Positions 3,348 to 37,363 of a DNA stretch of 64,000 nucleotides are shown piece after piece. How positions within the stretch are numbered: the first letter of the stretch is position 1; every line of letters begins with the position of its first letter. The notes under the pieces are model-generated. The model was given only the letters and a program-made list of their open reading frames with translations. It was not told the origin of the DNA and made no database searches. The stretch lies in the NCBI GenBank assembly GCA_964592525.1, contig CAZQFB010000001.1, positions 65,419 to 129,418 on the forward strand, given 5' to 3'. Source of the DNA: an uncultured Candidatus Saccharibacteria bacterium. Its GTDB lineage: Bacteria; Patescibacteriota; WWE3; CAZQFB01. The translations under genes were made by a program, and so were the position numbers.

Positions 3348-3409
3348 AAACGGCACTTGACTAACTATAGGTTTTAAGCAATAATAGCTTTATCTTTCAA
3401 ATCACATTA

Positions 3410-3628
3410 GATCGCAGGAGGTGATCAGTGTGCGTCGACGAAATTAAGAGGGAAGTTCAGGAGGACCCCACGAAGCGCGTTCCTCGTGGGGTATGTCGGT
3501 GTGATTGTGCTCTCTGCGATCGTGGAGAACACAATCTTTGCCCAAGTAGGTTGTGCGGTTTGGGTTATCCCGAGCCTTCAACTCCACATCAGGATCCGTA
3601 ACTAACGTTACGGATCCTCTTTTTTTGC
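3410..3628 (+). ncRNA. Candidate structured small RNA (GC-rich intergenic segment; identity unresolved, 5' end tmRNA-like)
   Basis: It lies in a non-coding gap between convergent genes and is markedly GC-richer than the flanks. There is long-range complementarity between GATCGCAG (3410-3417) and CTGCGATC (3514-3521), and an internal hairpin CCCCACGA/TCGTGGGG (3465-3492). It ends in a hairpin plus T7 run at 3591-3627. The 5' sequence GGAGGTGATCAGTGTGCGTCGACG resembles the tmRNA 5' consensus. Confidence 0.3.
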
Positions 3629-4563
3629 TTAAGTACTTGCCAGCGGATTTTGTCGGCTGTTTGAAAAAGTTTATACCCAACCGGGTCTATGATAAGATCC
3701 CAAGCTCCTGGGTATTCAATTAATTCTGCACCGTAACCTTCTTTAAAACGGTGAAAGCCATACCAAGGATCCTCTCTAGCTACTGGTTGGGGAAGGGCTC
3801 CCCACATATCTAACTGGGAACAGCCAATTTTTTTCCCTAACCTAATCGCTTCCCACATGATTAGGTTGTTAGCCATCACCTCTTTATGTTCAGTACTTGA
3901 ACCACCATAGGGGTAATAAAAAGTATCTTTGTAGCTCATTAAAAAGTAAGCGGCTAAGGGTTTATTTTGGTAAGTGGCTATTAAAAGGTATGCCATATTT
4001 TTAGCAGTCAGCATCTTCCATAAAGTATGGTAGTACTTATCAGGATGAAGGTGAAAACCTTGTCTAATGGCAGTTTCTTGCTGCAAAAGCAAAAAAGTAT
4101 TAATGTCTTCAGCTCTTTCCACCCTTACCCCTTTCTTCTGGGCCAGCTTAATGTTGTATCTGGTTTTGGGGTGCATCTTTGTTAACAGTTCTTCTTCTGA
4201 AGGGGCTATTTCTAGCATAAAGGTAGCCGTGGCAAAGGTTGGTTGAGTTTTCAATAGTTGGTATTTAGTTTGGGGTATTTGGTAGGAAAGGGGTGCATTT
4301 GGCACATCAATTTTGATATGTGTACAATGGTGTTCTTTGCCTGAAGTAAAAAGAATATCCAAATCTAAATCTTTAGGCTGAAGACGGGGTAAATAACCTA
4401 CCTTTTTATTACTAAAGGGTATTGAGTGCAGAGTGTATTGAAGCTGACCAATGCGAACACTAGGGGTACCCATCTTAGTTTTAAATTCTCCCCACTCCGG
4501 TGATTGCACGACATGGTCTGGATATTTATTCATCTTTACTAAAAAGTTTACACCATTCCTCAA
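3589..4563 (-). CDS. FemAB-family peptidoglycan interpeptide-bridge aminoacyltransferase
   Basis: Fem/FemX-like pattern (KTRYNIKLAQKKGVRVERAEDINTFLLLQQETAIRQGF ... YYPYGGSSTEHKEVMANNLIMWEAIRLGKKIGCSQLDMWG). An alternative start is Met11 (4533). Confidence 0.55.
   Translation of the reverse strand: MRNGVNFLVKMNKYPDHVVQSPEWGEFKTKMGTPSVRIGQLQYTLHSIPFSNKKVGYLPRLQPKDLDLDILFTSGKEHHCTHIKIDVPNAPLSYQIPQTKYQLLKTQPTFATATFMLEIAPSEEELLTKMHPKTRYNIKLAQKKGVRVERAEDINTFLLLQQETAIRQGFHLHPDKYYHTLWKMLTAKNMAYLLIATYQNKPLAAYFLMSYKDTFYYPYGGSSTEHKEVMANNLIMWEAIRLGKKIGCSQLDMWGALPQPVAREDPWYGFHRFKEGYGAELIEYPGAWDLIIDPVGYKLFQTADKIRWQVLKQKKRIRNVSYGS
3591..3627 (+). terminator. Rho-independent terminator-like hairpin (AGGATCCGTAAC-TAA-CGTTACGGATCCT) followed by CTTTTTTT
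   Basis: A perfect 12-bp inverted repeat with a 3-4 nt loop followed by a T7 run on the + strand. It has A-rich flanks on the other strand, so it may act bidirectionally for the convergent genes. Confidence 0.55.
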
Positions 4564-5251
4564 AAGTTAGTGTTTCGGCTCTTCTTCTCGGATCAATACC
4601 ACAACTATTAAGCAGCTCTAGCGCAAAGACCTTTTTTAGCATTTTACGGGGATGGGAAAAACCCTTATGAAGAAAATTCATGAACTTAATCTTATTTTCA
4701 ATCTTAGCGGGATCTTTCTTAATAGTGATCAGAGCGCTTTCTACCTTGGGGGGAGGGTTAAAAGCTTGTGGCGGTATGGTTTGAAGGTATTTAGCTACGC
4801 CGTAGAGGAGGACAAAATTTGCTAGGTAAGAGGCTTTAGGTGGTTTAGCAGTTATTTTATCTGCCACCTCTTTTTGTACAAGAAGGGAAAGTTTTTCTAT
4901 CTCTCCCAGCTCGCCCAATACCAGTCTGTGTAGGAACGGAGATGTAATTTGGTAAGGGAGAGAGCTAACAATAGTAAGTGGACTTTGTGTTAATCGGGTA
5001 ATTTTTAAAATGTCACCGGCAATGATTTCTACATTTGTTCCATCAAACTTTTTCTTAAGAAAGGGAATCAGTTCTTGGTCAAATTCTACAGCGATTACTT
5101 TAGCTGCTTGTTTAGCCAACTCTTCTGTGACAGCCCCCTTACCTGGTCCAACCTCCAGCACAATAGTGTTATTTGTTATCTCTCCACTGCTTACCAGTTG
5201 GGCGATAACTTCTTGGTTGATAAGGAAGTGTTGACCTAAAACTTTTTTCAT
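4526..5251 (-). CDS. rsmA: 16S rRNA (adenine1518/1519-N6)-dimethyltransferase RsmA/KsgA
   Basis: QHFLINQEVIAQLV followed by the SAM-binding motif VLEVGPGKGAVTEEL; about 240 aa as for KsgA. Confidence 0.8.
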   Translation of the reverse strand: MKKVLGQHFLINQEVIAQLVSSGEITNNTIVLEVGPGKGAVTEELAKQAAKVIAVEFDQELIPFLKKKFDGTNVEIIAGDILKITRLTQSPLTIVSSLPYQITSPFLHRLVLGELGEIEKLSLLVQKEVADKITAKPPKASYLANFVLLYGVAKYLQTIPPQAFNPPPKVESALITIKKDPAKIENKIKFMNFLHKGFSHPRKMLKKVFALELLNSCGIDPRRRAETLTFEEWCKLFSKDE

Positions 5252-7879: not shown

Positions 7880-8971
7880 ATGGCATTAACTATCGCAATA
7901 AACGGCTTAGGTCGGATTGGGCGGGCGGCATTAAAGATTGCTCTGGATAGAGAGGATATCAAAGTGGTGGCGATAAACGACTTGCAGGATGTTAGGGTTC
8001 TGTCGTACCTGTTAAATTACGATACCGTATATGGTGCTTACGAAAGAATGGTTAGTGCGGAACGGGATGGGGTAGTAGTGGCTATGGAAGATGTGACTCC
8101 TAATTATGAGTATGTGTCAGAGTCTTCCGGCAGTAATCATAGCGATTATTTAATTGTGGATGAGACAAAAATTAAAGTCTTTAACCAGAAAGACCCCAAC
8201 CAGATACCTTGGGGTGAGTTGGGTGTGGATGTTGTTCTGGAGTGTACGGGAGTATTTACTGATTATGAAAAGGCTAAAGCTCATTTGGCAGCGGGGGCAA
8301 AAAAAGTCATTATCTCCGCACCTAGTAAGGGAGAAGGTGGAAAGACACTGGTTTTTGGCACAGAAAGTCTGGAACATGAGTTGAACACAGCGATTATCTC
8401 TAATGCTTCTTGCACCACAAATTGTGTCGCCCCAGTGGTTCAGATTATGGAGGATACGTTTGGTATAGATAAAGCTTGGTTAACCACTATTCATTCTTAT
8501 ACTGCCAGCCAGAATTTAGTTGATGGTTCGCACCACAAAGACCTTCGTAGAGGGCGAGCGGCCGCCGCCAATATTGTACCCACCACTACGGGGGCAACAA
8601 AAGCGGCTACGGAAGCGGTGCCTTCGCTTAAGGACAAGTTTGAAGGAGTGGCTATCAGGGTGCCGACGATTAATGTGTCCTTTAGTATAATTACAGCTAT
8701 TCTCAAACAAGGTACTACTATGGAAGAGCTCAACCAAACTTTTATTAAAGCGAGTGTCGAGGATAGGTACAGGGGAATTGTGACTACCACGGTTGAGCCT
8801 TTGGTATCTTCTGATTACATCAAAAACCCCCATTCAGCTATAGTGGATATGGATCTTACTCGCGTTCAAGAAGGGACCTTTGTGACTGTGTTTGCTTGGT
8901 ATGATAACGAATGGGGTTACGCTACTCGCTTGGTAGAGATGGCAAGTTGGCTGATGGGGCACTCTAACTAG
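7880..8971 (+). CDS. gap: Glyceraldehyde-3-phosphate dehydrogenase
   Basis: INGLGRIGRAALKIAL NAD-binding N-terminus and the catalytic SNASCTTNCVAPVV motif. A GGAGG RBS sits 8 nt upstream of the ATG. Confidence 0.9.
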   Translation: MALTIAINGLGRIGRAALKIALDREDIKVVAINDLQDVRVLSYLLNYDTVYGAYERMVSAERDGVVVAMEDVTPNYEYVSESSGSNHSDYLIVDETKIKVFNQKDPNQIPWGELGVDVVLECTGVFTDYEKAKAHLAAGAKKVIISAPSKGEGGKTLVFGTESLEHELNTAIISNASCTTNCVAPVVQIMEDTFGIDKAWLTTIHSYTASQNLVDGSHHKDLRRGRAAAANIVPTTTGATKAATEAVPSLKDKFEGVAIRVPTINVSFSIITAILKQGTTMEELNQTFIKASVEDRYRGIVTTTVEPLVSSDYIKNPHSAIVDMDLTRVQEGTFVTVFAWYDNEWGYATRLVEMASWLMGHSN

Positions 8972-9138: not shown

Positions 9139-10113
9139 CTAGTCTTCTTCAGAGGGAAGATCGGCTATTCTGGTGGGTATTTTGTTGAACATCTCTTGCG
9201 TGATCGTAAACACACGTTCATCCCCTTCCTTTTGCAGATAGTATTTGGTGTTATCTTGCGGGTTCCCGTTGGTAATGATGTTACCGACCAAAATAGTGGT
9301 GTCTTGCTCGTTCGCCGTGATAATAAATCTTTTAGCTGGGCTGTTAAATCCGGTTAATTCTTCTTCAAGACCTAAATTAACATCAACTGCTTTAAAGTTA
9401 CTCAACAGGGTGAGAAGAGGTGTCATGGCAGTTTCAGAAAGTTCTACTCTCAATGGTTTAGTGATTACCCATTTATCTTCTTGTCTTTCAACTACTAAGC
9501 CATTGCCATTTTCGCGACCCTCTATTTTAGCGATACTGTCTTTTCCTATGGTAAGTATTGTTAAGTCTCTCAACTCTGGTTGGTTAAAAGTCTGTCTGAT
9601 ATTTTCTGGATAAAGATAGACATAGGGCTCTCCCGCCTTTCTAATATAAGTGCTTAAAAAATCGGGACCAGCTTTACCCACGTAAAAATCAGCAATCACT
9701 TCGTCTTTGTTGTTAATACTTACTTTAATGCCCTTTTCATCAACCCCAAATTGCGCTTGATTAATTTCATTTTTGGAGACCAGCTCGGTTCTTTCAAGGG
9801 ATAAACTTTTGTTAATAATAGCTTCAATTAACAACTGATCAGCGGGAACATTATTGCTGGTTTCCACCAACCATTGCTCATCTTTTAGAGTGACTTTTTG
9901 TTCCAGGTTATTAATGATTATGGAAAGTTGGTTAATTTCTTGTTTATCATTGGTATTCAAGAAAGGAGTAGCTTTATCTGCTCTAATTATGTGAAAAGGA
10001 TCTTTAATTAGAATAATCATTAAGACTATTACTACTAAAGCACCAGAGAGCAAGTAGGTGGTGGTAATATTTGACGGCTTGGTTATATCTAGTTTTAAAT
10101 TATTCAAATACAT
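9139..10113 (-). CDS. DUF4340-like membrane-anchored protein, third gene of the ABC/GldG-type exporter cluster
   Basis: Single N-terminal TM segment then a soluble domain. Position and size match the DUF4340 gene that follows GldG-type auxiliary proteins. It overlaps the upstream gene by 14 nt. Confidence 0.4.
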   Translation of the reverse strand: MYLNNLKLDITKPSNITTTYLLSGALVVIVLMIILIKDPFHIIRADKATPFLNTNDKQEINQLSIIINNLEQKVTLKDEQWLVETSNNVPADQLLIEAIINKSLSLERTELVSKNEINQAQFGVDEKGIKVSINNKDEVIADFYVGKAGPDFLSTYIRKAGEPYVYLYPENIRQTFNQPELRDLTILTIGKDSIAKIEGRENGNGLVVERQEDKWVITKPLRVELSETAMTPLLTLLSNFKAVDVNLGLEEELTGFNSPAKRFIITANEQDTTILVGNIITNGNPQDNTKYYLQKEGDERVFTITQEMFNKIPTRIADLPSEED

Positions 10114-12346
10114 ACTTTTTTTTAGCCCGATAACGAGCTCTTACTATGCCAATGGTTAATATTACTAAGATTGGCATCACCATATTAATCAGTTTAATTT
10201 TATTGGTTTGGGTTTCAGTGTTGAAATTAATGAGCGGACGATTTAAATTGGCCTTACTTCTGATACCGATTAATCTTTCATCCTGGGTCATATAATCTAA
10301 GACATTAAGCGTAAAGATAAAGTTACTTTGCGTTCGTTGCAGCATTGAAGGCTCTAAGAAGTTGGCGTCGCCCACGACCATGATTTTGGCTGTTGGATTT
10401 TCCGTGTCTAGAGTGTACTCCTTTTCACCCAAATGGGCTGGGATATCTTCCGTTTTGAATTGAGTGGTATAGCCTCCTGTATAGAGAGCGGCTAATGTAT
10501 AGGGTCCCGCTAAGTCTTCTCTCTTAAAATTTTGTTCCGGAGAAAGGTTAAAAGGTTCTTCTTGGAGAAAACTTTCCTTTGATGATTCCAAGATAGGTAT
10601 TAAGTTTTCTTTATCCGGTGTTAACTCCAAACTACTGACCCAAGGTAACGTAACCGTATCTAATCTGTTTACCGTAATATGTTCCTTCATTCCCTCACCA
10701 ACAACTTTAACCCAAAAAGGGTAGGGGGTGATGATATTCCCAAAACCAGTATTGAAAGTGGCCAGATCTGCTGAAGAATCTAAAACGAGTTTATTGGTTA
10801 AGCCCACCCCAATTTGCTCTAGTAACTGATCCAAACCAGTATTATGGGGTGTAGCCGTAAGGTCATTAGCTACCGCCACACCTTCGGTGGTAATTAACAA
10901 ACCAGTGCCTCTAGTGACTAATTGGTCTAATGTAAATATTTCGTCTTTGGAAAGATCGGTTGGGTTGTGGATGATAATAGCCTTGAGGGCATCGGTGGTG
11001 GGGTTTAAAGACGTGAGCTCGATAAGTTGGGTCGTGTAGAGAGTAGAAAATAGTTCTTGGAGGTCTTGAGCAGTTTCTAAATTAGAGGAGAAGATACCTA
11101 CTACCGGATCAGTTTCCCTTAATAATCTTGTGGTAGCAGCTATGATCTCATATTCTAAGTTATTGGTATTGTTAATTACAGGTAGAACTTCTTTTTTATC
11201 AGCATAGGTAATAAGCATCCCCAAATAGCCGTTACTAACTTGAAAGCGGTCTCTTTCAATTTCATTAAATTGGAGAAGCGGTATGCCTAAGGTTTGTGTT
11301 TCTTGGGCGATAGTAGCTTTTTCTGCTACGTTGATATTTTTAATCACTAAATTACCTTCCGCACTATTTTGCATATCTTGAAGGAGGTCGGCAGCTTGTT
11401 GTTTGACTAAAGCATATTGAGGGGGTAGCTCCGGAGAAAAATAAGTATTAATACTAATAATATCGGGTAATTCTTTGAGGATATTTATTGTTTCTGGAGA
11501 AAGCGAGTTTTGTTTATTTTCGGTTAAATCCCATCTTAGCGGAGATAGGAACACCAAATAATTAAAAGCTAAAGCTAAAGCCAGAATGAGGGCAGCTTGT
11601 ATAGTTGTACTGTGCCAGAAAGAGTGAGTTGTTCTTTTCGTGCGCATGCTAAGTACAACAACATTAAGAGTAATAAATACAATTACTAAAGAAGTGAAAT
11701 AACTAATGTCTCTAAGATCTAATAAGCCTCTTAAACCATTTTCATAATGTGAGGCGGCACCCAGAAATACCGCTATTACTTGAATTATTTCTGGTAGTTG
11801 ACTGGTGATTAAAGTAGAACCCAAAAGATAAATAACGATCGCTAATATTAAGCTGATCATAAAAGCAGCTATCTGATTCTGGGTCAAAGAAGATATTAAT
11901 TGACCTAAAGCTACTAAAGTGGCACTAAATAAGAGAAGGTAAATATATCCAGAAAAAACCGTTCCCCAGCTAAGATTACCTAAAAGAGAAATGCTGAAAG
12001 GAATACTGAACGTCAGGATGACGGTCAGGAATAAGAACAGAAAACAGCCTATAAATTTACCCGCTACTGCTTGAATATTGGTGATAGGTAATGTTAGTAA
12101 CTGCTCGATCGTGCCAGATTTATTTTCCTCCGCCCACAGTCTCATCGTTAATGCCGGGATCATAATTAACAGTAACCAAGGAGCAATATTGAAAAATTCT
12201 CTCATGGAGGCTTGGTTCTGGATAAAAAAGCTGGTCCAAAACAACCAGTTGGTAAATAAAAAGAAGACACTTACAAAAATATATGCGGTGGGTGAATTAA
12301 AATAAAAATTGATTTCCCTTTTAGTTAAAGTTAAAACGGTTTTCAT
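10100..12346 (-). CDS. ABC-2 family permease fused to a GldG-like auxiliary domain
   Basis: The N-terminal roughly 240 aa has multiple hydrophobic helices (ABC-2 permease-like). The C-terminal roughly 480 aa is a periplasmic domain flanked by TM segments, resembling GldG (ABC-type gliding-motility-associated auxiliary component). Its start overlaps the stop of the ABC ATPase (ATGA). Confidence 0.55.
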   Translation of the reverse strand: MKTVLTLTKREINFYFNSPTAYIFVSVFFLFTNWLFWTSFFIQNQASMREFFNIAPWLLLIMIPALTMRLWAEENKSGTIEQLLTLPITNIQAVAGKFIGCFLFLFLTVILTFSIPFSISLLGNLSWGTVFSGYIYLLLFSATLVALGQLISSLTQNQIAAFMISLILAIVIYLLGSTLITSQLPEIIQVIAVFLGAASHYENGLRGLLDLRDISYFTSLVIVFITLNVVVLSMRTKRTTHSFWHSTTIQAALILALALAFNYLVFLSPLRWDLTENKQNSLSPETINILKELPDIISINTYFSPELPPQYALVKQQAADLLQDMQNSAEGNLVIKNINVAEKATIAQETQTLGIPLLQFNEIERDRFQVSNGYLGMLITYADKKEVLPVINNTNNLEYEIIAATTRLLRETDPVVGIFSSNLETAQDLQELFSTLYTTQLIELTSLNPTTDALKAIIIHNPTDLSKDEIFTLDQLVTRGTGLLITTEGVAVANDLTATPHNTGLDQLLEQIGVGLTNKLVLDSSADLATFNTGFGNIITPYPFWVKVVGEGMKEHITVNRLDTVTLPWVSSLELTPDKENLIPILESSKESFLQEEPFNLSPEQNFKREDLAGPYTLAALYTGGYTTQFKTEDIPAHLGEKEYTLDTENPTAKIMVVGDANFLEPSMLQRTQSNFIFTLNVLDYMTQDERLIGIRSKANLNRPLINFNTETQTNKIKLINMVMPILVILTIGIVRARYRAKKKYVFE

Positions 12347-13272
12347 GATTCTTTGGTAGTCAGGTTATGAAAAGTATCTTCTAATGAAGCTTGTTCTTCA
12401 TGTAATTCTAATAATTCAGCTTGGCAATTAACAGCTAGTTTGAAGATTTCGGTTCTGATATCTTCCTGGGAATTAACCTGATATCTAGTTATGCCCTTGC
12501 TGTCCTTTAATTCTTTAATTACAGTGACTCCTTTGAGCTGACCTAACTTATCTTTAGATAAACTGCCTTCCCGCCCTATTTTTATAGATAGAGTGTGCAT
12601 TCCGGAAGATTTTTTCTGTAATTCTTCGAGCGATCCTTCAGCCACAATAGTTCCTTGGTTAATAATTATGACCCGATTACATAAGGCAGCTGCTTCCGGC
12701 AGAATATGAGTACTGATGACAATTGTTTTGGTTTTTCCAATCTCTTTGATTAAATTTCGTATTTCCACAATTTGGTTGGGGTCCAGACCGGCAGTGGGTT
12801 CATCTAAAATTAAAATGTCAGGATTATGGATTAAGGTTTGGGCGAGCCCTAATCTTTGCCGATAACCTTTGGATAATACTGACACTGATTTATTGATGAC
12901 CTCTTTTATTCCGCAAATAGCTGCTACTCTCGTAATGGCGCTTTTGTGGTCTGGGGAGGGTATCTTTCTTAACGCCGCAATGAAATGGAGATATTCACTA
13001 ACCAGCATGTCGGTATAAAGAGGATTTTGTTCAGGTAAATAACCTAAAATCCTTTTTATCTGCAGAGGGTTTTTTTCGACAGTTAAATTATTTATTAATA
13101 CCTGACCTTTAGTGGGACTAATGTAACCAGTGATTATTCTCATGGTAGTTGTTTTACCAGCGCCATTAGGTCCTAAAAATCCCACAATTTCAGAGGGGGT
13201 AACTTTAAAAGAGATATCCTTCAGTACCGTTACTGGTCCAAAGTCTTTGCTGATATTAATAAGTTCAATCAT
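12343..13272 (-). CDS. ABC transporter ATP-binding protein (GldA-like)
   Basis: Walker A GPNGAGKTTTMRII, ABC signature LSKGYRQRLGLAQ, Walker B ILILDEPTAGLD. Confidence 0.85.
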   Translation of the reverse strand: MIELINISKDFGPVTVLKDISFKVTPSEIVGFLGPNGAGKTTTMRIITGYISPTKGQVLINNLTVEKNPLQIKRILGYLPEQNPLYTDMLVSEYLHFIAALRKIPSPDHKSAITRVAAICGIKEVINKSVSVLSKGYRQRLGLAQTLIHNPDILILDEPTAGLDPNQIVEIRNLIKEIGKTKTIVISTHILPEAAALCNRVIIINQGTIVAEGSLEELQKKSSGMHTLSIKIGREGSLSKDKLGQLKGVTVIKELKDSKGITRYQVNSQEDIRTEIFKLAVNCQAELLELHEEQASLEDTFHNLTTKES

Positions 13273-13327: not shown

Positions 13328-13630
13328 ATGTTTGCTGGGATTAATATCCCCTGCTACAATTTCAAAACGATGAAACCACATCTTATTTTTGCCAATCCTC
13401 AAAGATGTACTGGTTGCGGTTTATGTTCTTTACACGCCTACCCCTTATTGAAAGGTCTTGGAGTTTTTTCTCTAGCCCTGTCGCCAATTATTGTGCAACG
13501 TTCCTCCCCTTCTACAGGGTATTATTTTACGGTGCATTTTGATGAAGCTTTAAGTCATGAGCTTTACTCATTGGTTAAAGTATGTCCTCGCGGTTGCTTT
13601 TCTTGGCAAGAGGGGTCTAAGGATGAGTGA
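13328..13630 (+). CDS. Small ferredoxin-like protein with degenerate 4Fe-4S motifs
   Basis: CTGCGLC ... KVCPRGC resembles the layout of 2x[4Fe-4S] ferredoxins encoded next to AOR genes (CxxCxxCxxxCP ... CP), but several Cys ligands are missing. The start could be the internal Met (MKPHL). Confidence 0.35.
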   Translation: MFAGINIPCYNFKTMKPHLIFANPQRCTGCGLCSLHAYPLLKGLGVFSLALSPIIVQRSSPSTGYYFTVHFDEALSHELYSLVKVCPRGCFSWQEGSKDE

Positions 13631-15275
13631 TATTACACAGCATCGGGTGTTGTACCTTGATCTGACTAATCATAGTAGTGAGATTAAGGTGCATTCAGAT
13701 TATTCTGATACCTTAGGTGGTCTTGGTTTAGCGATGGTCTTATTCCACGATTTAGTTGAGAAACAACCCATTATCATCAGCATTGGTCCTTTGACCGGGT
13801 TATTTCCATTTGCGAGTAGTACCTGTGCCCTATACACATCTCCTTTAACACACTCTGTGGGAGAAAGTTATGTTAATGGTTGGTGGGGTGCGTGTATGAA
13901 ATTTGCAAAGTTAGATGCTGTGGTGATTACAGGTGTATCTAAATATCCAGTTTATATTACTATCGCTGAAGATAAAGTTTATTTTAAAGACGCTTCCTTG
14001 CTCTGGGGTTTAGGTACTGGGGACGCTACTAACAAGCTTAGGGAAATGGAAGGTACTCCAGGAATAACTAGTATTGCCGTTATTGGTCAAGCTGGTGAGA
14101 AACAAGTGTGTTTTTCGGAGGTTGTGGTAGATGAAGTATATCGTTTTAAAAGATTTGGGTTGGGTTGCCAGTTTGGTATGAGAGGCTTGAAGGGTATAGT
14201 GTTGTCGGGTTTTGAGGAAATTAAGGTAGCTGATGCGGATAGGTATCAGCAGGTTTATTCTGAACTTAAGACGGCAGTTTTAAATGAGGGTGCCTCTAAA
14301 TTACTGCCTAATTTTATTAGCGAGATATCCTTAGCAGGCTTAAACTATCAACAAGAATGTGCTGGTTTACCTTTTAAAAATTTAAGTTCTACTCGGGCTG
14401 ATTGTTTTCTGGATATAAATAATTTCAACCAATTATTTTCTACCCAGCTGTTTTCTTCTTTTGGGGCACCTCTGCCTGATCTCTTGGCAGTGACCAGTGA
14501 TCGTAGTTGTATCCCCCTGGATTATGAAAGTATTGTGAGTTTGGGTTTTATGTTAGGGATAACCGATATTAAACATATTGTTCAGTTAATTAATACTGCT
14601 CATCAATACGGGTTAGATCCAGTGTCTTTAGGTGCTGCTTTAGCTTATCTTACCGAGTTAAAAGGAATTTCTTATGGTAAGGTTGAAGTTTATCAAACGC
14701 TGCTTGATAGCTTAGTGTCTAAACGAGAAGATTGGGCTATATTATTGAGTAAGGGTGTAATGGCAGCGGTTTCAGAATTTGGTGGTTTTGAGCACACCTT
14801 TATGTTAAATGGTATGGAAGCGGAACCTTTCCATAATGGTTACGCTACTCTTCTTTCGCAACTGTTAAACCCAGCTGTAACGTTAAGACAAGCTGAAGGC
14901 GAGCAAATTGATATTGGTTTGAGGGGTTGTGAGTTTAAAGACGAAGACTTGATCGATTTAATACATTCAAAAATTTTAGCTTCATACTTTTTTGATAGTT
15001 TATTAATTGATTACCCTGCTCGTTCTCTATATGCAGAAGGAGCTTTTGTGAGTAATGCTTTGCGGTCTGTTGGTTTATCTTATAGCCCAGAAAGAGTGGA
15101 AAAGATTATCTTGGGTTTGTATGATTTAAAGAGAGAATTGGTTGCTCAACTGCCACTTAAAATTAGGGACAGGAAATGGTCGCCCAGATTTTTTTCTACT
15201 CCTAGTGCTTATGGTATGTTACGCGAGGATAGAATGGTTAATTTAATTACTTTGTTCCAGAATAAATATCTATGA
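13623..15275 (+). CDS. Aldehyde:ferredoxin oxidoreductase (AOR)-family protein lacking the canonical Fe-S cysteine ligands
   Basis: Clear AFOR_N-like N-terminus (GGLGLAMVL, GPLTG, SPLT, WWGACMKFAKLDAVVITG, PVYITIAEDKVYFKDASLLWG) and FGLGCQFGMRGLKGIVLSG. There are no CxxC/CxxxC motifs in the C-terminal half. The start is taken at the internal MSDITQH. Confidence 0.6.
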   Translation: MSDITQHRVLYLDLTNHSSEIKVHSDYSDTLGGLGLAMVLFHDLVEKQPIIISIGPLTGLFPFASSTCALYTSPLTHSVGESYVNGWWGACMKFAKLDAVVITGVSKYPVYITIAEDKVYFKDASLLWGLGTGDATNKLREMEGTPGITSIAVIGQAGEKQVCFSEVVVDEVYRFKRFGLGCQFGMRGLKGIVLSGFEEIKVADADRYQQVYSELKTAVLNEGASKLLPNFISEISLAGLNYQQECAGLPFKNLSSTRADCFLDINNFNQLFSTQLFSSFGAPLPDLLAVTSDRSCIPLDYESIVSLGFMLGITDIKHIVQLINTAHQYGLDPVSLGAALAYLTELKGISYGKVEVYQTLLDSLVSKREDWAILLSKGVMAAVSEFGGFEHTFMLNGMEAEPFHNGYATLLSQLLNPAVTLRQAEGEQIDIGLRGCEFKDEDLIDLIHSKILASYFFDSLLIDYPARSLYAEGAFVSNALRSVGLSYSPERVEKIILGLYDLKRELVAQLPLKIRDRKWSPRFFSTPSAYGMLREDRMVNLITLFQNKYL

Positions 15276-16300
15276 TTCGAGGTGACCGTCGGCAAATAAA
15301 TTTTAAAATAGTTGTGGTTATTCTTGCTTTATTGTTATTGGTTGTTTTGGTGCTCATTAAAAGAGACCCCCTTGGCTTTGTTCTATCCCCACTAAAAGTG
15401 TTTTCTAAATTATCTGGGGAAGCTTCACTGGTAGAAAAAGAAGGCTATACTCACATCTTATTGGTGGGATTAGACCGTCGTATGACGGATATGACTCCAG
15501 GTGGTCTGAATGATACTTTGGTTGTTGCGTCTATTAGTCCGGAAAAGCAAAGAATTGTGCTGACCACAATACCAAGAGATCTTTGGGTACCAATGAGTGG
15601 TGATTATCAAGGAAAAATAAACTCTGCCTTTGGTTATGGGGGAATTGAAGAAGTTATTAATGTTGTTCGAGGAATATTGGGTATTCCCATTCATTATTAT
15701 GTTTCTGTTGATTTTAAAGGTTTTAAAATGGGAGTTGATATTTTGGGGGGATTAGATGTATATGTCGAGCAATCCTTTGATGATTATAAGTTTCCGATAG
15801 AAGGAAAAGAAGATGCTCCAGAAGAAGCTGATCGTTATGAACACATTCATTTTGATCGTGGTTGGCAGCATATGGATGGTGAAACAGCCCTCCGCTTTGC
15901 GCGTTCCAGAAATGCGGTTGGTCCGGAAGGATCTGATTTTGCACGAAGCGAACGCCAAAAGAAAGTGCTTCTGGCAGCGAAGGAAAAAGCTTTATCTGCT
16001 TCTACGCTGTTTAATCCGGTTAAATTAAAAGAACTGTATGAATTATTTGGAGCTACAGTTGGCACAGATATCACGATCAGTGAAGTGCAAAGCTTATACC
16101 AGTTGGTTCGGGAGATACCTAACGAAAATATTCTTTCCGTGACTGTTGATCATACTTCCAGTTCAGGTCAACGGTTTTTGTATACACCACAAGATTTAAT
16201 GCCTTATGATGGCGCGTGGGTTTTAGTGCCTACTGTTGGTGATTTTAGCGAAATCCAAGAATATCTTAAGCAACTTCTTTTTACAGAATATTCTAATTAA
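15272..16300 (+). CDS. LytR-CpsA-Psr (LCP) family cell-envelope phosphotransferase
   Basis: N-terminal TM segment, HILLVGLDRR ... DTLVVASISPEKQRIVLTTIPRDLWV ... INSAFGYGG, a typical LCP core. Confidence 0.75.
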   Translation: MIRGDRRQINFKIVVVILALLLLVVLVLIKRDPLGFVLSPLKVFSKLSGEASLVEKEGYTHILLVGLDRRMTDMTPGGLNDTLVVASISPEKQRIVLTTIPRDLWVPMSGDYQGKINSAFGYGGIEEVINVVRGILGIPIHYYVSVDFKGFKMGVDILGGLDVYVEQSFDDYKFPIEGKEDAPEEADRYEHIHFDRGWQHMDGETALRFARSRNAVGPEGSDFARSERQKKVLLAAKEKALSASTLFNPVKLKELYELFGATVGTDITISEVQSLYQLVREIPNENILSVTVDHTSSSGQRFLYTPQDLMPYDGAWVLVPTVGDFSEIQEYLKQLLFTEYSN

Positions 16301-16987: not shown

Positions 16988-17682
16988 TGGAAGTAACAAG
17001 ATACATTAAAAGGACCCCACGTGATTTGGTGGTAGCCGAAAAAAGGAAGGTTCGATATTTCATTAATTTGTTTAGCTCTGTGCTTTTCTTTATGGGTTTG
17101 GTGGTGTTAACTTATCAGTATGTTTCTCCTTTGCAAAGTATGGCTTCCAAAGCAGTTCACCTTAGACCTGTTCCCGATGAGTATTTAAATCAGCTAATCT
17201 CCAGTCACAGGGATTTTGCTTTTTTGGAGTTGCAGAATGAGTTGGAATATCTGGAGGGTAATTACCCACCTGAATTTTCTCTTAGTATTCCGAATTTAGA
17301 GCTTTATGACCTGCGCGTGGAGACCAACAGTCATTCTCTTTCGCCTAATGAGGCTCTAGGTCATTTATCGGGTAGTGCTTATCCTGGTCGTGTGGGGAAA
17401 GTAGTTATTTATGGTCATTCAACGATACCTTTTTTGTTTGACTCCAAGGATTATCGAACCGTTTTTTCTCGCCTTGATAAATTAAATACTGGTAACCTAA
17501 TAACCGTTGATTTTGCCGGGCAGGTTTATACTTATATTGTTAAATCAAACCAAATAAGCCTGCCACAGGAACTAAATTTAAACTCTTTTTCTCGTAATCA
17601 GAGTAACTTGGTACTAATTACTTGTTATCCTTTTGGGTCAACAGAGCAACGGTTGGTAGTGGTTGCTGACTTAGTTAATTAG
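16984..17682 (+). CDS. Sortase-family transpeptidase
   Basis: N-terminal TM segment; LSIPNLELYDLRV; a His motif GKVVIYGHS; FSRLDKLNTGNLITV; the catalytic Cys motif LVLITCYP; a downstream Arg. Confidence 0.75.
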   Translation: MMEVTRYIKRTPRDLVVAEKRKVRYFINLFSSVLFFMGLVVLTYQYVSPLQSMASKAVHLRPVPDEYLNQLISSHRDFAFLELQNELEYLEGNYPPEFSLSIPNLELYDLRVETNSHSLSPNEALGHLSGSAYPGRVGKVVIYGHSTIPFLFDSKDYRTVFSRLDKLNTGNLITVDFAGQVYTYIVKSNQISLPQELNLNSFSRNQSNLVLITCYPFGSTEQRLVVVADLVN

Positions 17683-18536
17683 AGGACGGCTAATTTTAAC
17701 AATTGTTTTCTAAGCCACACTTTAGCTGCAGAATCTCTTTTTTGTACTACGCCCAGGTTAATATTGATTCCCTTGACTAGGTCTTGCTTGGTTAAATCTT
17801 CAATACGTCCTTGAGGCGTTAACTTGATTGTGGGAGAAGGTTGTGATTGCTTGGTATTGATTATAATACTGGCTGTTTCCTCATTGACTCCTATCGCGGA
17901 AATCTCTAATTGATCTGTTTCGTGGGAATAAAAAAAAGGTCCCAGCCAGTTATTAGTGAGGGCGTCTTGGAGATTAATGGAGTAAATCCCTTCTGGGTTA
18001 GTGATAGCTGATAATTGGGAGGAAATACCAGACGTGCCTTGAGCATCAGCATCTTTGATGACCAAATAGACTAAAGCGTTTTCTACCGGTTCATTAGTTA
18101 TATCAATAACTTGACCGAAAACGCGATGTGGCTCCCCCAGATTATTTTTGAAAGCTGTTTTGATCATTGATGTTTTTGATATTTCGTATTGCTGTTTACC
18201 TACGCCAATCAACACCTCATAGACAGTGTTTGGTTGGAGCCCATCAATAGTGAGATGGTGGTTAGTGGCAAGATAGGGAGAAAAATCTTCCCATTGTTGG
18301 TTGTTATTAGTGAGGGTTAGATAACCAGTAGTTGGAATTTCTGTATGCCAAGATACGGTAAGAGCAGTGGCGGTCACGTTGGTTATTCTGACATGACCGG
18401 GTTTTTGGGTAACGTTAGCGGAGGTAAAAAGAATAAGCGCGGTTTTTCCCACGCGGGCAACTGCAAAAGTACCCAGTCCGAGAAAAACTAAAATAAGAAA
18501 AGTTTTAAATCCTTTTTGGGGTGGTTCATAGTTCAT
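17679..18536 (-). CDS. Secreted fibronectin-III / carboxypeptidase-regulatory-like domain protein
   Basis: Signal/TM N-terminus, an FN3-like segment (VTATALTVSWH ... LQPNTVYEV) and GQVIDITNEPVENALVYL (CarboxypepD_reg-like). It overlaps the large surface protein gene by 4 nt. Confidence 0.45.
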   Translation of the reverse strand: MNYEPPQKGFKTFLILVFLGLGTFAVARVGKTALILFTSANVTQKPGHVRITNVTATALTVSWHTEIPTTGYLTLTNNNQQWEDFSPYLATNHHLTIDGLQPNTVYEVLIGVGKQQYEISKTSMIKTAFKNNLGEPHRVFGQVIDITNEPVENALVYLVIKDADAQGTSGISSQLSAITNPEGIYSINLQDALTNNWLGPFFYSHETDQLEISAIGVNEETASIIINTKQSQPSPTIKLTPQGRIEDLTKQDLVKGININLGVVQKRDSAAKVWLRKQLLKLAVL

Positions 18537-20776
18537 CTCTTATTTTTTTCGGTATTGTTATGTCGAGTTAGAAAATAATTAAGACTGGGAAAGATAATTC
18601 CCATCATAACTAAAGCAACGCCAAGATAAGTTAATAATTTTGAGTAGGCAGTTATACCAGTGGCTGGCAAGCTAATAATTACTCCACCGGAGGCTTCGGT
18701 GGCTTCTTTTTGCACAATGGGTACAGTCACTACTGGTGTTTTGAGAGCTGGGGTTTGGGTGATTGTGTTTTCTGGTACTGTCGTTGGGCTCACTGGTGTG
18801 GTGGTGAGGGCTGCGGCTTCAACTTCTGTTTCTGCTGCTGTTTGCGATGCGGCTTCGGCAAAAACCCCATAGGTCGAAAATTTAGTAGTCGTACAGGTGA
18901 CTTGGTGCGCGGTGGTATCCACTTGGCAATTACTTAATTCTTCCCAATAATCTCCATTCCAGCGGTGAATTTTAAGGGACTCTTCGGCTAAACTGGGATT
19001 TAGATCTAGTGGGTTATAGCTCACGGTTATCGCGATTGGTTTTTGGAAAGAAGTGATAGTTGTATTTTCATCTACCAAAGCATCTAGTTCGTAAAAGTTG
19101 CTGCCAACGGCTGTTTTATTAGTTGGTGTACTAGTGCTGTCTATAACAGCTTGTTCTTCAAGTTTCTTAATTTGCATTATGGTATCGGTTTCATGATAGT
19201 CGGTGGGGGCTTCAATCTTAATACTTTCCCCTCCTTCAGTCAGAGAAACCGCACCACCATAACTAGCATTTATCTCGCTACTAGTTTCGGTTAAGGCTTT
19301 AGAATCGCCGATGCATCCGGTGGTAGTAAACATGAAATTACCACTCAATGATTGCTCGTTGTCAACTTTGGACAAGGTTTGGAAGTTATAGGTGGTGCAA
19401 TTAGTAAGACCTTCAAGTGTGACGGTGTGTTCTGTCACAGGAGTATCTAAATCTTTAACTGGGGTTTGGTTAGAATAGGCGCTAGCGATGCCATATTCCA
19501 CTTGAGAGGAGGCTTCTTTATCAGTAGACCAGAGAATGGTAGCTGAATCTTCGGTGATATTTACAGTGGAGACACTCGTAGTATTAAAGTCTTGCACCAA
19601 GCATTCGGCATTAGGGCTGACCGTACCGTTGATAGCTAAACATTCACTAGTAGTAGTTGTACCGAGAATGGTAGTAATGGTAATTTTATCTGTTTTGGCT
19701 GAAGGTGGTACTTCGGCTTCGATTAAAACGTTACTCCAAGTATAAAAGGTGGCGATTGGGGTTTCTCCAATAGTAACAGTGCTTGTTTCTTGAGAAGTAC
19801 CGAAATTGGTACCAATAATTGTCACCGGTGCTTCAGTGGAAATGTTTTTGGGGTGAAAAGATTCAATTTTAGGGCCTAAGTCCCCACTTTCTGGCGCTAC
19901 TATCTCAAACAATTCTGTACTGATTGCAGAACCGTTAGCAGTGTTGACTTGGATTTTTCCAGTGCTGGCGTCTGCTGGTACTAAGACCGTGATGTTGCTA
20001 TTACTCCAGCCTTTAATATCACTTTTGGCGGTTTGTATTTCTCCAAAGGCGATAGTGGCTTCTTTTTGATCTTCCCCAAAGTTTTCACCGGTGATAATGA
20101 CGGTGTTACCTGTGCTACCTCTGGTTGGGTACACGGAACTTATCTTTGGGCTGTTAGTCGTACTCTGACCAGAGATAGTGATGGTAGCATCATTTGGAAT
20201 AAGTAAGATATCTTCACCAGAATCAGTAGTTATCTTAGTGTTTTGAGGGTCAAAGTATAAAGGTGTTTTTTCGGTGGGATTAAGAGCCAGAAACTTAATT
20301 GAGCCGAAAATGGTATCGTCGTTAGCTATGAAGGGTTTGGTACTGTCTGGAGTGACGCCATCTAATCTAATAATAACTTGGTGCTGATTAGTGCCTGGGG
20401 TGATATTGTCAGAGGTATCATTAGTAACATAATTAAGTTCACTAATATTACCAGGTTTGACTTGGACGAGGTCAGCCTTGGTGCCTTGCGAATCAACAAC
20501 TTCAAAAGGAGCAGTATCTGATTCATAGGCGTAAAGAAGGCGTGTTTGAACGATACTGGTAGGGATGCCTCTGGTATTAATCTTGATAGCCACTTCAAAC
20601 TCTTCTCCCACTTCGGCATTAATTACTTGGGGATCTAAGGTGATTGAGGCTATTTGACCCCCATTGCTGGGTGCTGCTGCTCTGTTAATATACCCTGTTT
20701 TTTGGAGCAGAAAAAACACTGTTATTGGTAATGCTATCAGCACTAAGGCAGAAATAATTAACCCAATTCGTCGCAT
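18533..20776 (-). CDS. Large LPXTG-anchored multidomain surface protein (cohesin-like, 2x IPT/TIG, FN3), a sortase substrate
   Basis: N-terminal signal peptide, IPT/TIG-like repeats (PKISSVYPTRGSTGNTVIITGENFG; PKIESFHPKNISTEAPVTIIGTNFG), an FN3-like segment (ITEDSATILWSTD ... TYNFQTLS) and a Thr/Pro-rich stalk. The C-terminal sorting signal is LPATG + hydrophobic segment + RHNNTEKNKR. Confidence 0.7.
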   Translation of the reverse strand: MRRIGLIISALVLIALPITVFFLLQKTGYINRAAAPSNGGQIASITLDPQVINAEVGEEFEVAIKINTRGIPTSIVQTRLLYAYESDTAPFEVVDSQGTKADLVQVKPGNISELNYVTNDTSDNITPGTNQHQVIIRLDGVTPDSTKPFIANDDTIFGSIKFLALNPTEKTPLYFDPQNTKITTDSGEDILLIPNDATITISGQSTTNSPKISSVYPTRGSTGNTVIITGENFGEDQKEATIAFGEIQTAKSDIKGWSNSNITVLVPADASTGKIQVNTANGSAISTELFEIVAPESGDLGPKIESFHPKNISTEAPVTIIGTNFGTSQETSTVTIGETPIATFYTWSNVLIEAEVPPSAKTDKITITTILGTTTTSECLAINGTVSPNAECLVQDFNTTSVSTVNITEDSATILWSTDKEASSQVEYGIASAYSNQTPVKDLDTPVTEHTVTLEGLTNCTTYNFQTLSKVDNEQSLSGNFMFTTTGCIGDSKALTETSSEINASYGGAVSLTEGGESIKIEAPTDYHETDTIMQIKKLEEQAVIDSTSTPTNKTAVGSNFYELDALVDENTTITSFQKPIAITVSYNPLDLNPSLAEESLKIHRWNGDYWEELSNCQVDTTAHQVTCTTTKFSTYGVFAEAASQTAAETEVEAAALTTTPVSPTTVPENTITQTPALKTPVVTVPIVQKEATEASGGVIISLPATGITAYSKLLTYLGVALVMMGIIFPSLNYFLTRHNNTEKNKR

Positions 20777-24360: not shown

Positions 24361-26148
24361 ATGAAACAAGAAAATATACGTAACTTCGCTATTATTAGCC
24401 ATATTGATCATGGCAAGTCTACCTTAGCCGACAGGATGTTGGAAATTACGGGTACAGTGGAAAAGCGCAAGATGAAAGAGCGGTTTCTGGATTCACTTGA
24501 GGCAGAGCGAGAGCATGGTGTGACCATTAAAATGCAGGCGGCAAGAATGGAGTATCAGTTTGAAAAAGAGACCTATATTCTTAATTTGATAGATACTCCC
24601 GGTCACGTTGATTTTGGGTATGAAGTCTCTAGGGCTTTAGCTGCTTGTGAAGGCGCCTTGCTTTTGGTGGATGCTAGCCAGGGTATTCAAGCGCAAACGC
24701 TATCCACAGCCTCTAAAGCTATTAGTCAGGGGGTGACCTTAATACCCGTTATTAATAAAATTGATCTGCCCAATGCTGACGTGTTGAGAGTTACAGAACA
24801 ACTTACAGAAGTATTTGGTTTTCACAAGGAAGACATATTAAAGCTTTCGGCTAAGACTGGGGAAGGGGTTCATGATCTATTAACCTTAATTGTAAAAAAA
24901 ATAAAACCACCTTCTGGAGATAGCACCGGTTCTCTTAGAGCTTTGGTTTTTGATACTGTTTACTCTTCTCATAAAGGGGTGATTGCCTATGTCAAAGTAG
25001 TGGATGGTACCCTGAATAAAAGTAACAACATCTTTCTCATGAGGGGTAAAGTTAAAGGTAAACCTTTAGAACTAGGAGTAATTAGGGAAGGCTTTGTGCC
25101 TCAAGAAAAATTAAGTGCTGGGGAGGTGGGGTATATTGCTACTGGTTTTAAAAATATCAATAAATGTCGGGTTGGGGATACGGTAACTTTGAGTGACTTT
25201 CCAGCAACGGTGCCTTTAGCAGGGTATCAGTATATTAAACCGCTAGTTTTTGCGTCTCTTTTTCCTGTGGACAGTGATGATTATGAATCTTTTAGTGATG
25301 CTTTAGAGAAATTGGCTCTAAATGATTCTTCTCTTGAATATCGAAAGGAAAATTCGTCCGCCTTAGGTTTTGGCTATCGGGTAGGTTTTTTGGGTAGTTT
25401 TCATGCGGAAATTATTAAAGAAAGATTAGAAAAGGAATTTTTGTTGGATCTAATCATTACCTACCCTACCGTGTCCTATAACGTTGTTTTAATTGATGGG
25501 TCGGAAATTGCTATTACTTCTCCTGTGGAGTTACCAGAAGTTACAAAGATCAAAGAAGTTAGAGAACCTTGGGTGAGAGTGACTATTATGACTCCTGTTG
25601 ACTACCTTTCAGCTATTACCCAACTAATTTCCAAGTATCGTGGGTTGATGGTTAAGGTTGAGGATGTTAAACGTCAGTTGCTACTTAATTGTGAGATACC
25701 TCTTGCCGAAATTGTGATAAATTTTCATGATGATTTGAAATCACTTTCTGCTGGTTACGCCTCTTTTGATTATGAGCTAATTAATCATCGTCCAGTTGAT
25801 CTGGTGCGGGTGGATATTTTAGTGCACAAAGAGATGGTTCCTCCTTTTTCACGATTAGTTGTGCGCGATCAAGCGGAGAAAGTAGGTCGTAAGGTGGTAG
25901 AGACATTAAAAGTAGTATTGCCCAAACAACAATTTGCTATACCTATTCAGGCGGCTATTGGTGGTAAGGTTTTGGCTCGGGAGACTTTATCCGCTTACCG
26001 CAAAGATGTGACTGCTAAGTTGTATGGTGGTGATAGAACGCGCAAAGACAAATTGTTAAAAAAGCAGGTCCGGGGTAAAAAAAGAATGCGGGAAATGGGT
26101 AATGTGCAAATTCCCAAAGAAGCCTTTTATCAGGTGATGAAGAGCTAA
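24361..26148 (+). CDS. lepA: Elongation factor 4 (LepA)
   Basis: IRNFAIISHIDHGKSTLADRML ... DTPGHVDF ... NKIDLP and the LepA-specific C-terminus. Confidence 0.9.
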   Translation: MKQENIRNFAIISHIDHGKSTLADRMLEITGTVEKRKMKERFLDSLEAEREHGVTIKMQAARMEYQFEKETYILNLIDTPGHVDFGYEVSRALAACEGALLLVDASQGIQAQTLSTASKAISQGVTLIPVINKIDLPNADVLRVTEQLTEVFGFHKEDILKLSAKTGEGVHDLLTLIVKKIKPPSGDSTGSLRALVFDTVYSSHKGVIAYVKVVDGTLNKSNNIFLMRGKVKGKPLELGVIREGFVPQEKLSAGEVGYIATGFKNINKCRVGDTVTLSDFPATVPLAGYQYIKPLVFASLFPVDSDDYESFSDALEKLALNDSSLEYRKENSSALGFGYRVGFLGSFHAEIIKERLEKEFLLDLIITYPTVSYNVVLIDGSEIAITSPVELPEVTKIKEVREPWVRVTIMTPVDYLSAITQLISKYRGLMVKVEDVKRQLLLNCEIPLAEIVINFHDDLKSLSAGYASFDYELINHRPVDLVRVDILVHKEMVPPFSRLVVRDQAEKVGRKVVETLKVVLPKQQFAIPIQAAIGGKVLARETLSAYRKDVTAKLYGGDRTRKDKLLKKQVRGKKRMREMGNVQIPKEAFYQVMKS

Positions 26149-36695: not shown

Positions 36696-36712
36696 ATCTT
36701 GGAGTACTGATT

Positions 36713-37363
36713 ATGAGGATTGACTCGACTGGCGGGTCTTTTTTAAATCTTTTAAAAGAATCAGACTCTGCCCTAGTAGTTGCCAATCCTGTAGCAGGTG
36801 AGGAGGTGGTGGCTTCTTTATTGGCTTTGAAGTTCTTGTTGGAACGGATGGGACAAAAAGTGACTTTGGTTTATCCGGCTCAATTACCGACCTCGGCTAA
36901 TGAATTGCCGGGGTTTGCCGAAATCAGGACCACGCTTCCAGCCAGAAGTTTAAAGGTCAGTTTTGGTATTAATAAAACTGTCAAAAAAGTGGGTTATCAA
37001 GTCAAGGATGGTGTTTTTACGATGTTGGTTGAACCGTCGGAAGGTTGTTTGTATGCTAGCAATATCACTTTAGCGCCACAACCACTCAAGATCGATTTAG
37101 CTATATTTTTAGGCTATTCTTCTTGGCAGGAAATTGGTGTTTTAGCCCAAGAAATCGGTTTAGAGACAAGAGCTCTTCCGGTAATAAATATTGATAACCA
37201 TCACCATAACACTTTGTATGGTCAACTTAATATTGTTGATACTAGTGCAGCTAGTATTGCGGAGATACTCTTTAAAGCGATCCCCAGCTGGGGTCTTAAG
37301 CCGACCTATAGCTCGGCTAAATGTCTGTTGTATGGCTTGGGTTTAACAGATTCTTCATCCTAA
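36713..37363 (+). pseudogene. DHH-family phosphoesterase (NrnA-like) lacking the DHHA1 domain; a truncated gene or gene remnant
   Basis: The DHH motif NIDNHHHN is present, but the ORF stops right after CLLYGLGLTDSSS (equivalent to the NrnA GIxTDTG motif). No DHHA1-coding capacity remains before rpsO. Confidence 0.4.

Follow-up and report, generated by a model that had tools for sequence, protein, structure and literature searches.

Can the fold of a tungsten enzyme be kept by a bacterium after the residues that hold its cofactors have gone? The question is raised by two overlapping genes on the plus strand of a 64,000-nucleotide stretch from an uncultured Candidatus Saccharibacteria bacterium (contig CAZQFB010000001.1; the whole stretch is called the window here). 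The first gene encodes an 86-residue mini-ferredoxin (13370..13630), and the second encodes a 550-residue protein (13623..15275) that is predicted to have the fold of the aldehyde oxidoreductase/tungsten oxidoreductase (AOR/WOR) family, with no ligands for a [4Fe-4S] cluster and with a degenerate tungsten-cofactor site. We think it rather likely that this AOR-like protein is a cofactor-less pseudoenzyme, derived from a WorL/WorS tungsten enzyme and retained for a non-redox role.

Fold and cofactor site of the AOR-like protein

The AOR-like protein matches Pfam AFOR_N (PF02730) with 153.2 bits (E = 9.8e-45; cut-off 29.8) and AFOR_C (PF01314) with 48.3 bits (E = 1.1e-12; cut-off 27), and the NCBIfam AOR model aligns to its N-terminal third only, at 114 bits versus a cut-off of 868. 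A sequence search of the PDB matched FOR, AOR, WOR5, and BamB, with E values from 1e-29 to 1e-16. With an alignment of 60 sequences as input, AlphaFold2 gave a model with a pLDDT of 92.1 and a pTM of 0.93, and Foldseek aligned it over its whole length with 1aor and 1b25 at a TM score of 0.87 (E = 5.6e-32); every one of its nine best fold matches in the PDB is an AOR-family chain. Because the Pfam matches, the PDB sequence search, and the model with its fold matches agree, membership of the AOR/WOR family, as judged by homology and predicted fold, is not in doubt. The open reading frames (ORFs) and motifs, including the 550-residue AOR-family protein, had been described in an earlier note made from the sequence, and both the ORF check and Pfam bear that description out. 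The longest form of the ORF spans 13557-15275 and encodes 572 residues, whereas the form beginning at the ATG at 13623 encodes 550 residues with the N terminus MSDITQHRVLYLDL. The ATG at 13623 is the most likely start, given that the N termini of the orthologues agree with it and that a Shine-Dalgarno-like GAGGGG run lies upstream.

Ligand positions are given in the numbering of Pyrococcus furiosus AOR (PfAOR), whose sequence shows no difference from 1aor_A across residues 1-605. The corresponding columns were located by phmmer against 1aor and 1b25, by two MAFFT alignments with PfAOR, and by hhalign of the clade profile against 17 canonical enzymes (probability 100%). All three methods agree that the four Cys ligands of the [4Fe-4S] cluster are replaced in the AOR-like protein (C288S, C291A, C295D, and C494D). 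The former CxxCxxxC motif now reads S279-F-G-A282-P283-L-P-D286 (14457..14480, plus strand), which corresponds to PfAOR C288, C291, P292, and C295 and in which P292, between the former cluster ligands, is retained. The place of the fourth ligand, C494, is taken by D463 (15009..15011, plus strand). The protein has eight Cys residues and not a single CxxC motif, and no invariant Cys was found among the three Cys-less orthologues described below. A misalignment that masks the ligands is ruled out by the concurrence of the three methods together with the lack of a conserved Cys. The AOR-like protein is thus predicted to be unable to bind the internal [4Fe-4S] cluster while retaining the full three-domain fold.

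The tungsten site has been altered as well. Residues T243, E313, Y427, and H448 of PfAOR form the second shell at the tungsten (PMC12096430, PMC13328260); E311, Y312, and Y452 are listed with the tungsten-site residues, and the Mg carbonyls are those of N93 and A183 (PMC12096430). In the AOR-like protein, T243 is replaced by S236, Y427 by F403, and H448 by N416, and E313 is kept as E302. Further replacements are R76 to S66, R182 to Y173, D338 to H327, K450 to A418, and R444 to S412; in the alignment, R444 is near-invariant and R430 invariant in the canonical set. The active-site loop equivalent to PfAOR 427-450 has been rebuilt as P402-F403-H-N405-G-Y407-A-T-L-L-S-Q413...N416...A418 (14826..14876, plus strand), in which an 8-residue deletion removes R430 and is accompanied by Y427F, R444S, H448N, and K450A. 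Within this loop, P402, N405, G406, Y407, and Q413 are invariant throughout the syntenic clade. The cofactor-competent relatives define 63 canonical columns, in each of which at least 11 of 12 residues are identical; 43 of these are kept in the window protein and 28 in all three Cys-less proteins. The features by which a functional tungsten enzyme can be recognized, namely the four Cys, the second shell, and the presumed pterin anchors, are all three deficient in the AOR-like protein, and the tungsten-bis-pterin cofactor is very probably absent from it. The earlier note had read the protein as a degenerate AOR homologue that has lost its cluster Cys; the alignments agree on both counts, with four of the four Cys replaced and most of the tungsten-cofactor residues gone.

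Maintenance of the gene in Cys-less lineages

An exhaustive HMMER scan of 1.84 billion representative proteins returned 3,819 homologues, and 59 full-length ones were tabulated; the clade size given here comes from this library of 50% representatives and from a single scan of metagenomes. Among the 59 tabulated homologues, only P0016 (41% identity to the window protein; S, N, E, and D at the ligand positions) and P0017 (34% identity; S, N, D, and D) are Cys-less besides the query; the other ~55 full-length homologues that were examined have the four Cys without exception. The three proteins are monophyletic in 99% of neighbor-joining bootstraps, share 118 invariant columns, and are encoded by intact ORFs of 549-550 residues. 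The contig of P0016 is collinear with the window over ~20 genes, the shared order being AddA-type helicase, FemAB, KsgA, G5/3D, UvrD, GAPDH, DUF4340, the small ORF, the AOR-like gene, LCP, holA, sortase and, farther on, PilO/N and MurJ. Likewise, P0017 adjoins the same ABC transporter as the window gene.

The divergence of the AOR-like gene resembles that of its neighbors. Between the window and the related locus L004, the AOR-like proteins are 41% identical, compared with 41% for KsgA, 42% for sortase, and 42% for PilO, and the identities of 12 neighboring genes range from 23 to 65%. The ratio of AOR-like to LCP identity is 41/51 for the window and L004 and 44/52 for the Cys-containing pair L002 and L006. 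The ratio of nonsynonymous to synonymous substitution rates (dN/dS) is 0.17-0.22 among nearly identical P0017-type contigs, where a handful of substitutions gives low power, and 0.07-0.12 in Cys-containing pairs. Because intact orthologues are conserved, divergence is neighbor-like, and dN/dS is low, the evidence points to purifying selection on the AOR-like gene, with a slight relaxation possible, and not to decay. The conserved intact orthologues also rule out that the gene is a pseudogene.

A coupled ferredoxin with one predicted cluster

The longest form of the small ORF begins at 13328, which the earlier note had taken as the start of the gene; alignment with 15 orthologues favors the Met at 13370 instead. 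The stop of the mini-ferredoxin gene and the ATG of the AOR-like gene overlap by 8 nt (13623..13630, plus strand), an arrangement of translational coupling that is similar in the orthologous loci. A coupled small Fe-S gene is present in 22 of the 24 loci for which upstream sequence is available.

The Cys pattern of the mini-ferredoxin is C13-x2-C16-x2-C19 followed by C72-P-x2-C76. The ligand codons lie on the plus strand at 13406-13408 (C13), 13415-13417 (C16), 13424-13426 (C19), and 13583-13585 (C72), and the extra Cys, C76, is encoded at 13595-13597. In the bacterial ferredoxin fold, one [4Fe-4S] cluster is held by exactly this ligand set, a CxxCxxC motif with a distal Cys-Pro. Across 16 mini-ferredoxin orthologues, C13, C16, C72, and P73 are invariant, and C19 and C76 are each present in 15; judged by these residues, the mini-ferredoxin carries one complete [4Fe-4S] site. 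All members lack the second ferredoxin cluster site: in motif 1 the fourth Cys position holds Ala or Ser, and motif 2 of the mini-ferredoxin reads DYGQKTDY where 7Fe ferredoxin I reads DNCIKCKY. In one orthologue (L011, 2734-2973), a Trp stands at the third cluster Cys (CIGCGLW), representing either a true ligand loss or a sequencing error.

Pfam Fer4 scores 20.7 bits (cut-off 21.1), the single-cluster models Fer4_15 and Fer4_13 give below-threshold matches in 5 of 16 and 3 of 16 members, respectively, and the single-sequence AlphaFold2 model (pLDDT 50) was too poor for use. The best PDB profile match of the family, a weak one (E = 0.01), is to the N terminus of 9mqx_E, which in a tungsten AOR complex is the small, polyferredoxin subunit. 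The mini-ferredoxin probably derives from a WorS-type subunit that, at the base of the clade, was cut down until a single cluster was left. Its ligands are equally intact beside four-Cys and beside Cys-less partners. Because the same small-protein pattern occurs beside four-Cys partners, the small subunit was reduced before the large protein lost its Cys and independently of that loss. The parallel cofactor erosion of both partners that the earlier note proposed does not hold in this comparison, since the small protein keeps its full site in 15 of 16 orthologues regardless of the partner.

Two ligand losses in a syntenic clade

One metagenome scan with a clade-specific motif added 18 further loci. 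The syntenic family consists of AOR-like proteins of 540-580 residues, and the usual locus reads (gap ...) pgk, small ORF, AOR-like, LCP, and holA, followed in some cases by sortase; the gap/pgk-type order is found on a single strand in at least 17 related loci. All syntenic members carry the loop P-[YFI]-[FH]-N-G-Y-A-T-L-L-S-Q, and all lack R182 (Phe instead), D338 (Tyr or Trp instead), R430, R444, and H448. Most of them retain the four Cys, K76, K196, G242-T243, and Y427. Because most syntenic members keep four Cys, the absence of cluster ligands from the sub-clade of the window is, on this distribution, secondary.

A second ligand loss is seen in L013 (JABAOF010001653.1, AOR-like gene at 2956-4617) and L014 (JABAOH010006516.1, 2956-4617), each with an intact mini-ferredoxin upstream. 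In these proteins, C288 is replaced by Ser, C295 by Asp, and C494 by Asn, and C291 is kept. Both lie within the Cys-containing clade, whose monophyly is recovered in 100% of bootstraps. By this tree, the cluster Cys were lost twice independently, and both losses show Ser at position 288 and Asp or Glu at position 295. The nearest relatives with canonical residues are uncharacterized proteins from metagenome-assembled genomes of Thermoplasmata and Anaerolineales; in the one locus inspected, a multi-cluster ferredoxin gene is the neighbor of such a canonical-type relative. A scan of genome contigs gave an Anaerolineales homologue of this canonical-type sister family as its sole match.

The opposite loss is found in the P0021 lineage (L025, 2949-5647; L026, 465-3343; GCA_034659915.1), where pgk is followed by the AOR-like gene after a 17-nt gap, with no mini-ferredoxin gene between them and with the four Cys kept. 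Because this lineage without the ferredoxin retains the four Cys, the ferredoxin-to-cluster wire is dispensable in the clade. The two halves of the putative electron path can thus be lost separately, an argument that selection does not act to keep electron transfer between the mini-ferredoxin and the AOR-like protein.

In the lineage of the window (at 7880-8971 and 9139-13272), unlike in most relatives (L002-L022), pgk is not adjacent to the mini-ferredoxin gene. Its place is occupied by a minus-strand operon of an ABC-2/GldG-like transporter and DUF4340. No PGK homologue was detected in the 64-kb window, although gap is present 4.4 kb upstream.

Genomic surroundings

The plus-strand pair sits between the minus-strand ABC-2 transporter operon and the gene of an LCP (LytR-CpsA-Psr) protein (15272..16300, plus strand). 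This conserved downstream neighbor is given as context only. The AOR-like stop and the LCP ATG overlap by 4 nt (ATGA, 15272-15275). The earlier note had reported this overlap and taken it as coupling to a cell-envelope enzyme; the overlap itself is real, but the functional part falls away, since the order of ~20 genes is frozen across related genomes. With ~20 unrelated genes in identical order, the overlap is ruled out as evidence of function.

No family of molybdenum or tungsten cofactor biosynthesis and none of the Tup, Wtp, or Mod transporters was found by Pfam among the 54 ORFs of at least 120 residues in the window. These ORFs comprise housekeeping, envelope, and pilus genes, and the gene content of the window is compatible with a genome of the candidate phyla radiation (CPR)/Patescibacteria type. 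A search with LepA gave little taxonomic guidance: the nearest relatives share 60-68% identity, and those with a name (Moranbacteria and Chloroflexota) ~52%. The adjacent ABC transporter was considered as a tungstate system and ruled out, as it is of the ABC-2/GldG-like kind (ABC2_membrane, ABC_transp_aux, and DUF4340).

Several other features of the window were observed. No Rfam family reached its gathering score in positions 1-64000 (no tRNA, rRNA, or riboswitch). Every 2-kb bin has a positive GC skew, and the cumulative skew climbs monotonically, as expected of a single leading-strand replichore. Downstream of the sortase gene, the minus strand encodes two large proteins of surface type (17679-20776) that carry purple-acid-phosphatase-N/fn3-like and TIG domains, are conserved in related loci, and are probably sortase substrates. 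A 270-residue protein (26145-26957, minus strand) shows the unusual combination of an ATP-cone and an Mrr-type restriction-endonuclease catalytic domain. In addition, four ORFs match no Pfam family: 36632-37363 (plus strand, 243 residues), 40124-40906 (plus strand, 260 residues), 52235-53827 (plus strand, 530 residues), and 62460-63674 (minus strand, 404 residues). The 530-residue ORF follows an FtsA/PilM-like gene and gives only a sub-threshold match to Baseplate_J.

Role of the AOR-like protein

A pseudoenzyme is marked by the loss of catalytic or cofactor residues, by an ORF that is intact and conserved across lineages, and by purifying selection; the AOR-like protein shows all three, the dN/dS of ~0.2 having low power. 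As the gene lacks the ligands and is nevertheless maintained, non-redox repurposing, which the earlier note had raised as one option, is the best reading. The ancestor would have been a two-subunit oxidoreductase (WorL/WorS, Class II-type) in a small-genome, CPR-like lineage. Its small subunit would have shrunk to the single-cluster mini-ferredoxin, the active-site loop of the large subunit would have been rebuilt, and in the sub-clade of the window the cluster Cys would have changed to Ser, Ala or Asn, Asp or Glu, and Asp. In a complex with the mini-ferredoxin, the AOR-like protein would now act in binding or scaffolding, without a redox function, through a rebuilt pocket that is invariant in the clade (N405, Y407, Q413, and D430), with the cluster of the mini-ferredoxin as the sole remaining redox center. 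A more specific proposal, which we put forward tentatively and regard as doubtful, is that the cofactor-free AOR fold with its new invariant pocket (P402, N405, G406, Y407, Q413, and D430) acts together with the mini-ferredoxin, in a new function, for example the sensing of redox state or metabolites that connects glycolysis (gap/pgk) with envelope assembly (LCP/sortase), and that the recurrent changes of Cys to Ser and Asp have turned the old cluster site into a new non-Fe-S metal site or a salt bridge. If this is true, the tungsten-enzyme family would have a functional branch that is both non-pterin and non-Fe-S, the first of its kind.

Several points weigh against the pseudoenzyme. Y312, E313, D343, D489, and R186 are kept in the AOR-like protein, and with these retained residues the old pocket could be occupied by some ligand. 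The replaced residues R76, R182, D338, and K450 are ones that we take to be pterin or phosphate contacts. The scan for cofactor genes covers 64 kb of a 344-kb contig. For the estimate of selection, dS is saturated in the informative Cys-less pair, and the unsaturated pair contributes ~7 substitutions. Moreover, that the AOR-like protein and the mini-ferredoxin would still form a complex is suggested only by the coupling of their genes.

The first alternative is a protein that has remained a redox enzyme. It would have a pterin-type or other organic or metal cofactor in the reshaped pocket and pass electrons directly to the mini-ferredoxin in trans, and either the cluster of the mini-ferredoxin would take the place of the lost internal one or S279, D286, and D463 would make up a non-cysteinyl metal site. 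This is unlikely. In its favor, the mini-ferredoxin is translationally coupled and has all four ligands in every Cys-less lineage; however, one lineage of the clade has discarded the ferredoxin entirely. The canonical internal cluster links the tungsten to the surface; were it missing, a cluster outside the protein would lie too far away. Y312 and E313 are kept in the window protein, but neither is fixed: both Cys-less orthologues have Asp in place of E313, and Y312 gives way to Phe among other Cys-less members. The rebuilt loop is invariant, and the changes of C288 to Ser and of C295 to Asp or Glu in two independent lineages could reflect selection for a new site; on the other hand, we know of no [4Fe-4S] cluster with zero Cys ligands. 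A single Asp ligand to the cluster does have a precedent in the family, in WOR5/ASOR (PMC12096430). Against any retained tungsten chemistry stands the loss of H448, described as "perfectly conserved" (bioRxiv 10.1101/2024.07.29.605569), and T243, Y427, R444, the R430 loop, R76, R182, and D338 have been lost too. Nor does the window hold cofactor-synthesis genes.

A second account, which overlaps in mechanism with the pseudoenzyme and which we regard as distinctly unlikely, sees the protein and the mini-ferredoxin as the remnant of a ferredoxin-dependent glyceraldehyde-3-phosphate oxidoreductase (GOR/GAPOR-type) of the glycolytic gap-pgk operon, the protein now binding glyceraldehyde 3-phosphate or a sugar phosphate as a regulator or partner of glycolysis or, via LCP/sortase, of envelope synthesis. 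Bacterial GOR is a WorL/WorS heterodimer that substitutes for GAPDH (PMC13328260), and the order (gap ...) pgk, mini-ferredoxin, AOR-like, LCP, and holA recurs in at least 17 loci, with gap also lying 4.4 kb upstream in the window. This adjacency may be frozen synteny, however, as ~20 unrelated genes (including UvrD, KsgA, FemAB, MurJ, and LepA) are collinear, and in the lineage of the window pgk is not adjacent and no PGK is present in the 64 kb. The nearest cofactor-competent relatives (Thermoplasmata and Anaerolineales, with a polyferredoxin neighbor) are also not known GORs. Finally, a decaying relic, that is, an incipient pseudogene without function, is very improbable. The AFOR_C match of only 48 bits, the retention of 43 of the 63 canonical columns in the window protein and of 28 in all three Cys-less proteins, and a dN/dS somewhat above that of Cys-containing relatives would suit such a relic; yet the 549-550-residue ORFs have stayed intact while three lineages diverged to 34-41% identity, with 118 invariant columns and a confident full-length fold prediction. 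The divergence is typical of neighboring essential genes, and the gene has been kept despite a reduced genome. We therefore retain the pseudoenzyme with a non-redox role as the preferred reading.

Comparison with known tungsten and molybdenum enzymes

All known AOR/WOR members hold a bis-metallopterin cofactor, and the tungstoenzymes share a nearby Fe4S4 cluster (PMC12096430). The residues that coordinate the pterin and the [4Fe-4S] cluster show "very little variation" among >4,000 sequences in 92 clades (PMC13328260), and the sole ligand variation mentioned is the set of three Cys and one Asp of WOR5/ASOR (PMC12096430). Neither a Cys-less AOR-family clade nor AOR homologues in CPR (Patescibacteria, Microgenomates, and Parcubacteria) were found in the literature. 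The significance of the finding is evolutionary and structural: it suggests that the scaffold of the tungsten enzymes is usable beyond tungsten chemistry.

Compared with P. furiosus AOR (1aor) and FOR (1b25), the window protein is predicted to have the same three-domain fold (TM score 0.87) at ~23% identity, and the domain 1 motifs GPLTG, SPLT, GxxGLG, and LKG are common to them. However, it lacks the four Cys, and its C terminus is ~40 residues shorter. The Class II WORs (PfASOR/WOR5, CbGOR, and the large/small-subunit core of 9mqx and 8c0z) offer a second comparison, as the window likewise has a coupled small Fe-S gene. The class II WorS is a protein of ~150 residues with four clusters and 16 Cys, whereas the small protein of the window has ~80 residues, five Cys, and one site, and the large subunit, in contrast to WorL, has no cluster to wire to. 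By its sequence, the pair therefore has the coupled small gene of a Class II WOR and lacks the four-cluster WorS.

The closest comparison is with the sister clade (P0002, P0003, P0018, P0019, and L009-L022), whose members are 32-35% identical to the window protein and share the mini-ferredoxin, the locus, and the NGYATLLSQ loop, as well as the loss of R182, D338, R430, R444, and H448. Unlike the window protein, they keep the four Cys, K76, K196, G242-T243, and Y427, and they probably still hold the [4Fe-4S] cluster. The clade thereby provides a natural series for the roles of cofactors in folding and function, with four Cys and a ferredoxin, four Cys without a ferredoxin, and no Cys with a ferredoxin (twice).

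The "orphan molybdoproteins" are homologues of molybdenum and tungsten enzymes in organisms without molybdenum cofactor synthesis, for which no sequence signature of cofactor loss was found (PMC6147048). The AOR-like protein is likewise a pterin-enzyme homologue in a stretch without cofactor genes and is possibly metal-independent. As a sequence-defined "orphan," it indicates that an AFOR-domain match should not be equated with a capacity to oxidize aldehydes or to use tungsten in metabolic reconstructions of CPR-like genomes. The orphan molybdoproteins belong mostly to the DMSOR and XO families (PMC6147048), whereas the case of the window belongs to the AOR family, and here the loss is explicit in the ligands.

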